A stretch of 47,526 nucleotides of DNA from Chloroflexota bacterium (GTDB taxonomy: Bacteria > Chloroflexota > UBA4733): assembly GCA_023381555.1 (NCBI GenBank), contig JAMCRV010000087.1:1-47526 (forward strand). Reading direction: 5' to 3'. How positions within the stretch are numbered: position 1 is the stretch's first letter; each line of letters opens with the position of its first letter. Of the stretch, positions 13,355 to 20,423 are shown one piece after another. The notes under the pieces are model-generated. The model did no database searches. It saw nothing but the letters and a program-made list of their open reading frames with translations, and was not told where the DNA came from. Both the position numbers and the translations under genes were made by a program.

Positions 13355-15253
13355 TTAGCCTCGCGCACCACTGCTTTGGGTCAGCAGATTCGTGAGAAAC
13401 TCAGCGTTGCTCCGGGTACGCTCCATCTGCTGCACGACTCGCTGCGTTCCCGATGTTTGATCAGGTGACATTGCCAGGACCCGCCGTAGGCGCTGCACCG
13501 CCATCAACTCATTGGGAGGTAGCAGGAGTTCCTCCCGGCGAGTGCTCGACTTGACGATGTCGATGGCCGGGAACACGCGCTCCTCTGCCAGACGCCGGTC
13601 GAGCACGAGCTCCATATTGCCTGTGCCCTTGAGTTCTTCATAGACCACATCGTCAAGACGGCTGTTGGTGTCAACGAGACACGTAGCAATGACAGTGAGG
13701 CTACCACCTTCCTGCAATGCTCTGGCAGCACCAAAAAACCGCTTGGGTGGATAGAGTGCTGAAGTTGCCATGCCTCCAGAGAGACTGCGGCTGTCGCCAG
13801 GCGCCGCCAGGTTATACGCGCGGGCCAAGCGCGTAATGGAGTCAAGTAGCACGACGACGTCGAATCCTGATTCCACCAGCCGCTTGGCTCGCTCGACAGT
13901 GAGTTCGGCAAGATCCGTGTGGTGGCTGATCGCCTCGTCAAACGTAGAGCTGATGGCCTCGCCTTTGATGCTCTTAGAGAGATCGGTGACTTCCTCCGGT
14001 CGTTCGCCAACGAGACAGACGATGAGCCGTACTTCAGGGTAGTTGGTGTTGATACTCCGCCCGATCTCCTTGAGTATGGTCGTCTTTCCTGCCTTCGGAG
14101 GCGACACGATGAGGGCCCGTTGACCGAACCCTATCGGCGCGACCAAGTCGATGAGCCGCGCTGTGATGGAGTCAGGACGCTCCAGCCGGATCTGACGTTC
14201 CGGATAGATCGGAGTGAGCTCATCGAAGTGTCTGCGCTTGGGCATCTCTTCGAAGGGAATACCATTGATGCTCTGAACGTCGAGAAGCTCGCCGAGGCGG
14301 CGACCTGGAAGCGGCCCGCGGACAAGGCCGACTACTTCGTCACCAGATCGCAGACCGTACGTACGGACCACGTGGTTCGGAATGACGGCGTCGCTGGCAC
14401 TCGGCAGATACCCGTGGATCCGCAGTGTCCACTGTGCACCACCCTGCTCCACGGAGACGACGAATCCTCGTGTGATGACTTCCGCCGGCCGTTGATACGT
14501 AGTGCCATCGAGCGCTCGATCGTGCTCCTGCGATTCACGTGCTGTTTGGTCTCGATAGCCCGCGGCTTCGCGAGACTGTGCGCTCCCTTCACGCTGCCAA
14601 TCGCGTCCGCGTCCGCCGTTTCCGTTCCGTGAATCTCTCCCTTGGAAGTTACCGCGATCGCGGTCCCGTCCATCTTGCTGGCTCCGGTTTCCATTCGGTC
14701 GCCCGGAGTCGCGCCCTTCTCTATTCGCCGGGCGATCACGGAAGTCACGGCGCTGAGAGCGATGCCCCTGACGCGACTGTTCACCAGAAGCCGGCTCCCG
14801 GTCGCCAGGACCGGAAGCGTGCTCGGAGCCGCTGTCACGGCGCTCATCCACAGGAGCGACCGTCGCGATGGTGTCATGCTTCAAGCCGGCCTGCGCGAGG
14901 TTGATGTCATTCACCTCTTCAACTCCAACGGAGACATTTCCGATATCGTTCGACGTAGTGACGGCAGCGGGGGGAACAGCAGCTTGCGCAACACTCTTGG
15001 AGTTTGCGGTCTCTTCTGTAGAACCAGTGGGAGGCTCCGTCATCGCATCAGCTTCGCTCGCGTTGCCTACGGAGGCACGAATATTCGACGATCTTGATCG
15101 GCGAGACCGGCTTCGACGGCTCGCCGGCGCCTGTTCGGCGGGTTGTAGCTCAGATTGGTTAGCATCTCTCCGAACGGCAACGTCAGCAGCGGTCTTGCTC
15201 AGGGCGTCGTTACCGTTGTGGAGAGGCTCTTGCACGGGTTGATCAATGCTCAT
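13355..15253 (-). CDS. rho: Transcription termination factor Rho with long disordered N-terminal extension
   Basis: [68 protein letters not shown]. Confidence 0.95.
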
Positions 15254-16700: not shown

Positions 16701-16868
16701 CTAAGAGGAAGGAGTAGGGGTTGCATTAGCGGCTTCAGCCGCCTCGAGCTCCTTCTGTCGCCGCCGAACGAGGTAGTCATCGACAACGAGGTAGGCTATT
16801 GCGGCACCGACACTCAGCAACGTTCCAGCGCCGACGGCCATGAGAAACCACTGAATGACCTTACCCAT
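16701..16868 (-). CDS. 55-aa single-pass membrane protein (MGKVIQWFLMAVGAGTLLSVGAAIAYLVVDDYLVRRRQKELEAAEAANATPTPSS)
   Basis: Manual translation: ATG preceded by GGGGG, one clean TM helix, then RRRQK and a charged tail. Not in the ORF track, whose shortest entries are 60 aa. Confidence 0.65.
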   Translation of the reverse strand: MGKVIQWFLMAVGAGTLLSVGAAIAYLVVDDYLVRRRQKELEAAEAANATPTPSS

Positions 16869-16947: not shown

Positions 16948-16976
16948 TTGACAGCGCCTAGCCACCGTGGTATAAA
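16948..16976 (+). promoter_or_regulatory. Near-consensus sigma70 promoter TTGACA-17-TATAAA with TGn extended -10
   Basis: ttgaca gcgcctagccaccgtgg tataaa. No protein-coding gene lies downstream on this strand. Confidence 0.75.
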
Positions 16977-16982
16977 TGTATA

Positions 16983-17258
16983 GGTAGCGGGTGACCAGCT
17001 ACCAAGTAGTTCTAGAGGCTGGAGGTAGTTCTTTGAGGCAACGCAAGGAACCCCGGTCAGCTTTGGGAGTCTGGCAAGTTGACCGATGAGGCCCTCGCCG
17101 CGAGTGGTGGTGCAGGGTCGGGACAACCCCGGGTAGCACCCTGAAAGTTTGATTCAGAGGGAGGAGTTTTTACTCCTCTAGGTATGAGACTGTTCAAAGT
17201 CCCTAAGGGTGGGCGCCGGTAAATGTAAAGGCGGGAAGCATACGCTTCCCGCCTTTTT
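16983..17258 (+). ncRNA. Structured non-coding RNA (6S-like candidate or unclassified)
   Basis: Flanked by a strong promoter and an intrinsic terminator. Stems: GGTAGC/GCTACC, GTTCTTTG/CAAGGAAC, CGGTCAGCTT/AAGTTGACCG, CAGGGT/ACCCTG, GAGGAGT/ACTCCTC, and long-range CTAGAGG/CCTCTAG. No long ORF. Confidence 0.6.
17227..17258 (+). terminator. Intrinsic terminator of the ncRNA unit
   Basis: Perfect 13-bp stem AAAGGCGGGAAGC-atac-GCTTCCCGCCTTT running into TTTTT. Confidence 0.85.
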
Positions 17259-17268
17259 CCGTTAGCAG

Positions 17269-17313
17269 TGTTCTCGGCGGCCATATAGTGATACAGTGTG
17301 GCCGCCGAGAACA
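17269..17313 (-). terminator. 3' hairpin directly after the stop of the zinc-ribbon gene
   Basis: Perfect 15-bp inverted repeat TGTTCTCGGCGGCCA/TGGCCGCCGAGAACA abutting the TAA at 17314. No strong U-tract. Confidence 0.5.
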
Positions 17314-17862
17314 TTAGTGCACAGGTTCAGAGCCAACAGTTCCAGCAGATTCTGGGGAAGTGGGCTGTTCTGACAGCTCCGGGCCAAGAGAGTCTGCGGG
17401 AGCGACAATCTCCTCATCCATGTCAACTTCGGGGTATAGCTTGGCAATTTCGTCAGGAAGCCGGTCAGGGTCCACAAACTTTAGTCGATACACCGGATCA
17501 CTCGCCAACGGGTACAGCGGCTCGATGATCTCGACCCATCCGTCGTCAATCCCACGAGCAATAGCCCGCGTCACCGTGAATACGAAAATCGAGTACGGTG
17601 TACTCTTCGGAGCTGTGGCCTGATAAATCCGCTCCCCCATACCGTTTGCGGTCCAGAGCATCTCGAGGACGTGCATAGGATCAGGCCGAATGATGTCCTT
17701 ACGCCACTTCTTCGTCTCGTACCACTGATCCAAGAGCGAATTGAACCGATACCACTTGCCAAGTGGATGATCACAAGATGGACAGGTCAACGACGCCACA
17801 GAACCTTGGACGTTGACCCTTTGCCCGCATCGCGGACAGGTAAGCGCCGAGAGCATTTTCAA
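17314..17862 (-). CDS. Hypothetical protein with N-terminal zinc ribbon
   Basis: CPRC...CPSC, GAGG upstream of the start, acidic C-terminal tail. Confidence 0.75.
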   Translation of the reverse strand: MKMLSALTCPRCGQRVNVQGSVASLTCPSCDHPLGKWYRFNSLLDQWYETKKWRKDIIRPDPMHVLEMLWTANGMGERIYQATAPKSTPYSIFVFTVTRAIARGIDDGWVEIIEPLYPLASDPVYRLKFVDPDRLPDEIAKLYPEVDMDEEIVAPADSLGPELSEQPTSPESAGTVGSEPVH

Positions 17863-19130: not shown

Positions 19131-20219
19131 TCACGAGATGACCGCTTCCAGCGCGTTTTCTCGAGTCGCTTGGACGAGTTCACGAGCGATGCGGCGGCCG
19201 ACGCTCATTTCCTCACCAAAGAGGTAGCGCGTGTAGGGTGATGTCGTCAACAGAATCGGCGCGCCAGGCACTCTCAGGCTCACATCGAAGCAGATGAACT
19301 CGCCTTGGTCGTCAAACACGCCTTGAAGCGCGAACGGACCAATAATTCCTGGAGGCAACAGCCGCTGACACGCCGCAGCGAGCTTGTCACCAAGTCCAAT
19401 GACGTGATCGAGGAGTGACTCTCGCACTGTGACGCCGCGGTGCCCCACAGGGATGAGCGTCGGCTGCACAGACACCGCCGCCTGCTGCGAAGCAGTCATA
19501 TGCAACAATCCTTCGATGTTCGACTCGATGCGCTGATCGGCCCCCAGAAACTCGCTGCGCTGACTAAGCGGCGACCAGAAATAATCCAAGTTGAACTGCG
19601 CTCCGATCACGAACTCCTCAATAGTTGCCAACTTGAGGTCATCCTCTCGAATCAGTCCTTGGTCTAGGAGATTCCGGCTCACCGCCTCGTAGTCTTGCGT
19701 GCTCCTGGCGGTGAAGAAGCCGCGCTCAACGGTGCGCACCGCCTGGGGCAGTTTGACCATCACGAGGCGATCGATTGCTGATGGCGTTGTAAAGTGGCGA
19801 GGTCTGCGAATATCCGCCTCTTCGAGGAGATCGTACTGGTTCGGCGACGCAGTACGCTCTTCGGCGCGGAGAAGTCTCCGGCCGCCAAACAGCGGCACCG
19901 GGAAGCGCTGCTCAATGGCATCACAGCCCACGTACACCGCGAAGGAGCGATTTGGAACAAAGATCGTGTTGAATGCGCGGAGACGCCCGATAGCTGCGTG
20001 GCCCACGACGTCAGCGAAACGCGGCAGCACAAGCACCTCATCGAATAGGTGCCGGTACTGCCCGACGTAGGGCCCCTCGCGCCCAGCCTGGCAGACCACG
20101 AGTGTCCGGACTCCCTCCTGATGCGCACCGTAGGCCACTTCGAGAGCCGAATGGCTACCAATGCAGCCAATCGTTAGATGCTCAACGTCATACCCCTCGA
20201 GCAGTGCCCGTCTCTCCAC
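19131..20219 (-). CDS. purP: PurP-like ATP-grasp protein (5-formaminoimidazole-4-carboxamide ribonucleotide synthetase family, DUF1246+DUF1297)
   Basis: GSHSALE...GA..EG..T, FVPNRSF..YVG, ERGFF, EEFVIG, D.RIESN..G, GH...TVRESLL, PPGIIGPFALQ, FDVS.RVPG. GTG start after GGAGGAG. Confidence 0.85.
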   Translation of the reverse strand: MERRALLEGYDVEHLTIGCIGSHSALEVAYGAHQEGVRTLVVCQAGREGPYVGQYRHLFDEVLVLPRFADVVGHAAIGRLRAFNTIFVPNRSFAVYVGCDAIEQRFPVPLFGGRRLLRAEERTASPNQYDLLEEADIRRPRHFTTPSAIDRLVMVKLPQAVRTVERGFFTARSTQDYEAVSRNLLDQGLIREDDLKLATIEEFVIGAQFNLDYFWSPLSQRSEFLGADQRIESNIEGLLHMTASQQAAVSVQPTLIPVGHRGVTVRESLLDHVIGLGDKLAAACQRLLPPGIIGPFALQGVFDDQGEFICFDVSLRVPGAPILLTTSPYTRYLFGEEMSVGRRIARELVQATRENALEAVIS

Positions 20220-20423
20220 CGATGACTCCTCCCACACGCAACCCCCTCATCCTACCGCTCTGACAATCACCCGACCTCTTCTCTGCAGCGGCGCACAGGC
20301 ACTCTATCGTTCTCCGTGCTCCACGGGTATCTGGCAACATGAGATAGCACAACCACGAGGGGCCGGTTGGGGAGCGCGAAAGAGCTCCGGCCACAAGAGC
20401 CGGAGGAACCGCTGCTCATTGGG

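Follow-up and report, generated by a model that had tools for sequence, protein, structure and literature searches.

The region 16948–17258 of the window (the whole 47,526-nt stretch analysed) is a genuine gene that is conserved, had no earlier description and occurs in many Chloroflexota. The unit consists of a promoter, a 5′ hairpin, a ribosome binding site, a micro-ORF ending in the near-invariant peptide GVWQVD, a hairpin designated P1, a multi-helix domain closed by helix P2, and a terminator; its mechanism is inferred from this anatomy. We give somewhat less than an even chance to the reading that it is a stand-alone, strongly promoted and translated small RNA, in which an arrest-like peptide and P1 would hold the ribosome and so gate a 3′ domain acting in trans.

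Organization of the transcription unit

The window comes from the chromosome of a Chloroflexota MAG (G000; 1.64 Mb in 129 contigs, 67 % complete). The features of the unit and of its flanks are as follows.

16701–16868, − strand: flanking gene for a 55-aa predicted membrane peptide
16948–16976, + strand: sigma-70-type promoter, with −35 TTGACA (16948–16953), a 17-nt spacer and an extended −10, TGgTATAAA (TG 16968–16969, TATAAA 16971–16976, read from the sequence)
near 16983, + strand: putative transcription start, placed from the promoter
16983–17003, + strand: 5′-terminal hairpin GGUAGC...GCUACC, present in the minimum free energy (MFE) fold
17021–17025, + strand: Shine-Dalgarno (SD) sequence GGAGG, separated from the TTG start by 7 nt
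17033–17089, + strand: micro-ORF of 18 codons plus TGA, MRQRKEPRSALGVWQVDR (TTG start 17033, TGA 17087–17089)
17066–17083, + strand: near-invariant hexapeptide GVWQVD, in the C-terminal part of the micro-ORF
17090–17119, + strand: hairpin P1, GGCCCUCGCCGC / GUGGUG-C-AGGGUC, present in the MFE fold and beginning at the first base past the stop codon
17129–17219, + strand: folded 3′ domain closed by helix P2, which encloses hairpins 17161–17178 and 17188–17201
P2 pairing, + strand: CCGG 17129–17132 with CCGG 17216–17219, and CACCCU 17137–17142 with AGGGUG 17206–17211
17227–17258, + strand: intrinsic terminator, with a 13-bp stem AAAGGCGGGAAGC/GCUUCCCGCCUUU, an AUAC loop and a U-tract
17314–17862, − strand: convergent flanking gene, whose 182-aa product has a CxxC...CxxC zinc ribbon at the N-terminus and matches no family

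The promoter is the only site on either strand of the 47.5 kb that matches TTGACA-N17-TATAAT in at least 11 of 12 positions, with 0.03 expected by chance, and the convergent gene has a separate hairpin of its own (17270–17312). Both signals recur in homologs: a promoter-like site occurs 60–100 nt 5′ of the Gly codon of the hexapeptide in 86 of 114 loci (23 of 114 in the reverse-complement control), and a terminator-like hairpin with a U-run in 80 of 107, mostly 160–220 nt 3′ of the same codon. The first-pass annotation was thus right in describing a TTGACA-17-TATAAA promoter, a perfect 13-bp terminator with a U-tract, a distinct 3′ hairpin for the convergent gene and, from these, a dedicated promoter-to-terminator unit. 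Its statement that the region has no long ORF holds in that no ORF of at least 60 aa lies on the + strand inside the unit, but the conserved 18-codon ORF was missed. The minus strand contains ORFs of 85, 69 and 46 aa within the unit, none of which matched a Pfam family.

Collection of homologs

BLAST comparisons with relatives located the unit, with conserved structure, in a member of the same genus, at 70 % identity, and also in another genus of that family, in agreement with its earlier annotation as a gene. A strict, narrow pattern run over 185,579 species genomes returned 50 stretches, six of which were kept while L050 and 43 others were judged to be chance matches; all six real matches are from Chloroflexota MAGs. 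A codon-degenerate pattern with up to three mismatches matched 50 of 401 Chloroflexota genomes, versus five for the reversed control, and six of its matches (L080, L081, L091, L092, L093 and L100) were excluded as chance before counting. The exact degenerate pattern found at least 120 stretches in metagenome contigs, 80 of which were examined. The pooled set contains 123 distinct loci from Chloroflexota genomes and metagenomes, with the metagenome share taken from among the matches listed; it includes L104 (genome G230, flagged as unpublished), on which no claim depends. Two loci lacking P1 (L166 and L184) were excluded from the terminator-duplex counts and from those of the residue following Asp, and the related genomes counted throughout are not independent of one another. 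We found no description of the GVWQVD motif, or of such an element in Chloroflexi, in the literature available without subscription.

The unit is usually present once per genome, with two variant copies in each of two genomes, G029 (L090/L129) and G055 (L089/L128). These belong to one family, and their variants have peptides of the form G[CR]WQ[VI]D and a different 3′ domain.

Conservation of the micro-ORF

Among the 119 loci with enough upstream DNA, all have an in-frame start and 115 an SD-like site. The deduced peptides of the 123 loci range from 8 to 33 residues, the commonest length being 14 and the shortest peptide M-GVWQVD-R; the extension before GVWQVD varies from 0 to ca. 25 residues, always keeping the frame, and the N-termini are unrelated, with hydrophobic residues at positions −1 and −2 relative to Gly. 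GVWQVD itself hardly changes, although its codons differ freely at the wobble position: the first Val codon is GTT in 32 loci, GTA in 31, GTG in 25 and GTC in 31, Gln is encoded by CAG (95) or CAA (28), and Asp by GAC (94) or GAT (29), a codon table that is biased because the search patterns leave wobble positions free and penalise other changes. The only loci free of this bias are the ten found with a model of the 3′ domain (see below), of which four carry amino-acid changes. Codon changes between the micro-ORFs of the window and of genome G001 are mostly synonymous, including the two-base changes AGA/CGG (Arg) and CTT/TTG (Leu). The unit therefore has the short ORF, ribosome binding site and conserved C-terminal peptide under amino-acid-level selection of an arrest-peptide leader.

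The end of the ORF is less constrained. The stop lies one codon past Asp in 107 of the 123 loci (TGA 57, TAA 33, TAG 17), immediately after Asp in five and farther downstream in 11, and different residues can follow Asp (R in 48 loci, S in 22, C in 9, G in 9, K in 7, others less often). The codon after Asp (17084–17086 in the window) is AGG, AGT, AGA or AAG in 68 of 121 loci, and together with the stop it often reads AGGUGA, which is SD-like and may reflect an extra constraint at the RNA level beside that on the peptide.

Some loci depart from the common pattern. In G003 (L098) the Trp codon is replaced by TTC (Phe), giving GVFQVD in an otherwise intact unit, and L259, which the model of the 3′ domain detected, has the same change. 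In one subtype (L064, L148, L172, L182, L183, L193, L199 and L211) the beginning of the ORF, AUG-ARG-CUU-CA (M-R/K-L-H), is conserved at the nucleotide level; the GCUUC of these first codons is repeated just before the SD sequence, and both copies are complementary to a GAAGC at the 5′ end. By eye, all three elements are changed together in L172 (GGAGU / ACUUC / ACUUC), and these leader repeats may form a switch controlling initiation.

Two other interpretations of the ORF were discarded. A type I toxin mRNA would encode a hydrophobic membrane peptide of ca. 20–60 aa, whereas these peptides are of 8–33 aa, with a basic N-terminus and ending in GVWQVDx. A selenocysteine or read-through ORF extending past UGA does not agree with the frequent TAA and TAG stops, nor with the GGUAGC motif, which by eye falls in differing frames among relatives.

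Secondary structure of the RNA

The RNA of the unit folds with −124.6 kcal/mol, compared to −99.8 ± 5.4 kcal/mol for shuffled sequences (z = −4.6; none of 200 shuffles was as good). The opposite strand folds nearly as well (z = −4.4), so that folding energy cannot tell which strand is the relevant one. The 5′ hairpin has an identical stem and a different loop in G001, and in other relatives a hairpin of different sequence occupies the same place, as judged by eye.

Hairpin P1 is positioned with respect to the coding sequence. A stem of at least five stacked pairs begins 3–9 nt past the Asp codon in 117 of 119 loci. Measured from the base at which the usual stop begins, the first paired base is 0–4 nt away in 115 of 118 loci, and the distance to the Asp codon is kept wherever the stop falls. 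The first four of its pairs hardly change (GCCC/GGGC), and different pair types occur at stem positions 5–9.

Downstream of P1, the 3′ domain contains the long helix P2 around at least two hairpins, conserved junction bases and then the terminator. The two strands of P2 changed in step between relatives, from CCGG..CACCCU/AGGGUG..CCGG in the window to CCGG..CGCCC/GGGUG..CCGG in G001 and CCAG..CGCCUC/GAGGCG..CUGG in G005, G003 and G002. Enforcing P2 on the window RNA costs 1.1 kcal/mol (−123.5 versus −124.6 kcal/mol for the MFE fold). In the best-sampled subtype (alignment A4, 42 sequences), the fold tested, composed of P1, a 14-bp P2, P3 and P4, had 89.1 % of cells paired, compared to 34–47 % when the partner columns were slid; changes on both sides were seen in 24 of 37 pairs, and none of 500 shuffles was as high as the observed values. 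Support was modest in the window's own subtype, with five sequences (68.8 % of cells paired, versus 32–56 % when slid). Pairs were not pooled across subtypes because a single MAFFT alignment misaligned P2. These results indicate that the 3′ domain is a real structure.

Other pairings were not supported. The rod fold proposed in the first-pass annotation (CTAGAGG/CCTCTAG, TTCTTTGA/TCAGAGGG and GGGAGT/GCACCC) had 55.9 % of cells paired in five family members, no improvement on the 36.6–55.4 % obtained after sliding, and 428 of 500 shuffles reached the same value, in a test bounded by the MAFFT alignment; by eye, its first stem has a counterpart only in G001 (GAUGAG/CUCAUC). For a long-range helix closing the 5′ and 3′ ends, RNAduplex results were noisy and the registers ambiguous by eye. 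Among alternative pairings that a stalled ribosome could switch, none proved to be conserved; the local helix considered within the 3′ domain was only 45–76 % paired, and was rejected as not conserved.

Coupling of the micro-ORF and the 3′ domain

We built a covariance model of the 3′ domain alone (R1), with no ORF columns, and used it to search 151 genomes of one class. It found ten loci, and in all ten an SD sequence, a start and the ORF lie directly upstream, showing that the micro-ORF and the 3′ domain are coupled. The hexapeptide is exactly GVWQVD in six of them and GVWNVD, RRWQVT, GVFQVD or GVWQTD in the others; the stop is missing from its usual place in two of these four variants and in one of the six exact loci. 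R1 detects only its own subtype (six strong matches among 70 sources) and not that of the window, which indicates that the 3′ domain diverged in sequence and the peptide did not.

This divergence bears on the idea that the functional part is the 3′ domain, which would bind a ligand or a protein in the manner of a riboswitch-like sRNA, the micro-ORF being an accessory 5′ ribosome-binding "stabiliser". In Bacillus, stalled or bound ribosomes near the 5′ end of ermC stabilise the downstream RNA, which sets a precedent for such a role, and the junction of several helices with conserved bases, followed directly by a terminator, would suit a binding domain. Nevertheless, a domain differing strongly in sequence between subtypes next to an invariant peptide is the reverse of the pattern expected from a ligand pocket, and there was no match to any Rfam riboswitch; we consider this explanation distinctly unlikely.

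Comparison with known RNA families

At gathering thresholds, no Rfam family matches the body of the unit. With permissive filters and E up to 10 there were nine weak matches, all at 17217 or beyond and in terminators; among the terminators, that of the unit (17227–17258) partially matches the CsrC terminator. In the same type of scan, the terminator hairpin of the convergent gene (17258–17325, − strand) gave a spurious match to mir-3118 (E = 8.6e-4), from which it follows that long perfect hairpins can mislead permissive Rfam scans.

The first-pass annotation had noted the absence of SRP RNA, RNase P RNA and tmRNA signatures, and this agrees with our results. SRP RNA is encoded elsewhere in the genome of the window (contigs C26 and C10) and in three relatives, and both tmRNA and RNase P RNA lie outside the unit in carriers G002, G049, G262 and G287; neither of the latter two was found in the 67 % complete genome of the window itself. 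tmRNA contains an internal short reading frame with a hairpin after its stop, and the unit resembles it (RF00023) in being a structured RNA with these same elements, but it has its own SD sequence and start codon, and lacks tRNA-like ends and a tag of the ...LAA type. The two SRP RNA genes of G000 are full-length and of the large type (C26:1142–1407 and C10:1652–1917; L007 and L009; 165 and 153 bits), which suggests strain heterogeneity or some contamination of the MAG.

The unit had been read as either a divergent 6S-like RNA binding RNA polymerase or an undescribed class of ncRNA. It shares with 6S RNA (RF00013) being single-copy, strongly promoted, highly structured and provided with its own terminator, and most genomes with the unit have no detectable canonical 6S RNA: RF00013 matched in just two of 41 carriers (G049, 66 bits; G362, 37.5 bits), compared to 26 of 101 genomes sampled across the phylum, and in none of five genomes of the window's family. 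This negative association is weak, however, because most non-carriers are also without a detectable 6S RNA and related genomes are not independent, and G049 contains both the 66-bit 6S RNA and a complete copy of the unit (L111). Additionally, the unit did not match the 6S model at E up to 10; the rod with a closing stem and a central bubble is not conserved, the conserved fold being P1 plus a multi-helix domain; and its conserved core is a translated ORF. A 6S-like function is thus extremely improbable, and the unit looks like a ribosome-gated riboregulator instead of a 6S-type RNA binding RNA polymerase. The other half of the earlier reading is partly correct, since the unit is absent from Rfam and undescribed but is not purely non-coding.

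Genomic context

The window neighbours with Pfam matches are ordinary housekeeping genes: Rho, a 2-hydroxyacid dehydrogenase, thioredoxin, CsoR, a PurP-like gene and RuvB. A prophage origin was considered with PHROGs searches of the neighbours and, set against the Pfam results, was rejected in favour of a chromosomal region. In three genomes (that of the window, one of the same genus and one of a second genus of the family) the unit lies between the same two genes. The convergent 182-aa zinc-ribbon gene adjoins the unit only in the window's family (f1), where it is syntenic, and its protein is conserved only there. The 18 downstream neighbours with a Pfam match comprise 12 convergent and six same-strand genes, the latter encoding FAD_binding_2, DUF362, Transketolase_N, Pyr_redox_2 (twice) and tRNA-synt_1e. 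Because neighbours differ between families, the unit appears to stand alone and not to be the leader of a particular gene. In G049 (L111), the SRP54 gene ffh and the unit share a strand, the unit following immediately downstream of the 3′ end of ffh.

The succession of leader peptide, hairpins and terminator has the layout of an attenuator, which would act in cis through read-through into a downstream gene or as antisense to the convergent gene; the six loci with a same-strand gene downstream and the synteny of the 182-aa gene in family f1 would accommodate this. Nonetheless, the variety of downstream genes, with 12 of 18 convergent, gives no sign of cis control of a specific gene, and the 182-aa gene is next to the unit only in f1. 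No covarying antiterminator was found: the 5′ arm of the terminator pairs with the P1 region of its own locus at −10.6 kcal/mol, and the P1 region pairs with terminators from other loci at −10.3 kcal/mol, the own duplex being better in just 40 of 83 loci, without the specificity of an attenuator or riboswitch. We therefore assign very little probability to a cis-acting leader.

A model for ribosome engagement

The combination of a tiny ORF set against a hairpin and a conserved folded domain suggests that the unit probably acts by engaging ribosomes. The nascent GVWQVD would probably be an arrest or pause signal inside the ribosome. When the Asp codon occupies the P site, P1 starts ca. 10–11 nt downstream, which in the geometry of the ribosome corresponds to the mRNA entrance, and the GC-clamped hairpin would at that moment stand there. 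Together, GVWQVD and P1 would keep the ribosome in place where the ORF ends; its occupancy would in turn determine the folding of P1 and the 3′ domain, and possibly the survival of the RNA. Once folded, the 3′ domain would be the trans-acting part, directed at a partner. The lack of a conserved alternative pairing and of an antiterminator leads us to favour an effect on how the 3′ domain folds or how long it persists. We also considered a more ambitious version, in which the unit represents a new class of ribosome-gated RNAs made of a minimal arrest ORF (M-GVWQVD-x), a hairpin roadblock and an effector domain, where translation state or a small molecule sensed in the tunnel would switch a trans-acting RNA with no downstream gene. 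Such an RNA would be, for translation, a counterpart of what 6S RNA is for transcription, conserved across a bacterial phylum; this is possible, if rather doubtful.

Several observations suggest that the peptide acts inside the ribosome and not as a free product: the conserved block consists of the six C-terminal residues, which can be preceded by the start codon alone; the residue after Asp is free to vary; the stop codon can differ in type and in place; and the distance to a strong hairpin is fixed. One of the two main competing views, the other being a ligand- or protein-binding 3′ domain, is that the micro-peptide with its GVWQVD end is released and acts in trans on some conserved target in the cell, P1 and the 3′ domain only stabilising its mRNA or tuning the translation; it seems to us fairly unlikely. 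It would explain why the peptide is under strong purifying selection while synonymous changes occur, and the good ribosome binding sites (SD-like in 115 of 119 loci), as well as a locus in G362 where the ORF apparently runs straight into a terminator with no 3′ domain, in a sequence with three pattern mismatches that reads GVWQED. Yet the active peptide would have to range from 8 to 33 residues with unrelated N-termini, and neither a fixed spacing between P1 and Asp whatever the stop position nor the tolerance to a lost stop in 11 of 123 loci would be expected. Likewise, a 130–190-nt domain with covarying helices exceeds the needs of a stabiliser, and there is no linked gene for maturation, export or reception of a peptide.

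If the ribosome-gated small RNA is as proposed, Chloroflexota would possess a gene, widespread and strongly expressed, with a conserved core made of six nascent residues that are set at a constant position against an RNA hairpin, and GVWQVD would be a new arrest-type motif, unrelated to the examples from model organisms. It would also be the first such motif with no tie to a downstream gene, suggesting ribosome stalling as the input of a trans-acting RNA. The model supplies a defined and easily tested sequence of 8–18 codons plus a hairpin. More generally, "orphan structured RNAs" noticed by eye or in intergenic screens can hide micro-ORFs bearing most of the conservation.

Similarity to characterized systems

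TnaC stalls the ribosome at or next to its stop codon, and the candidate stall in the unit would be similarly located. As in the arrest leaders ErmBL, TnaC, PepNL and MifM, a short ORF with a ribosome binding site, in which a few C-terminal residues matter, is followed directly by RNA structure. ErmBL stalls with Asp10 on the P-site tRNA, Val9 to Lys11 being critical, and MifM likewise has an Asp on the P-site tRNA (PMC4935803); Asp is also the last conserved residue of the unit. PepNL is a short ORF that arrests at its own stop codon (PMC11890864), close to where the stall is predicted here. In contrast to these leaders, the unit has neither sequence similarity to them nor a conserved downstream gene, its stall is a prediction from the sequence, and its ORF is followed by a conserved folded domain of 130–190 nt and a terminator.

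The dual-function RNAs SgrS/SgrT, RNAIII/hld and SR1/SR1P encode peptides of 26–43 aa that are free proteins, and the RNAs act by base pairing. The unit resembles them in standing alone and spanning a few hundred bases from its promoter to its terminator, and by sequence it has the traits of a dual-function sRNA, an independent unit that is both translated and structured. It differs in that its conserved peptide has six residues, at a fixed distance from a hairpin.

Other features of the window

Two further genes of the window deserve mention. The Rho homolog (13355–15253, − strand) has 632 aa, with the RNA-binding and ATPase domains starting from ca. residue 277, and hence a long N-terminal extension. 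The PurP-like gene (19131–20237, − strand) codes for a DUF1246/DUF1297 protein, an ATP-grasp of a type known mainly from archaea, here in a bacterial genome.
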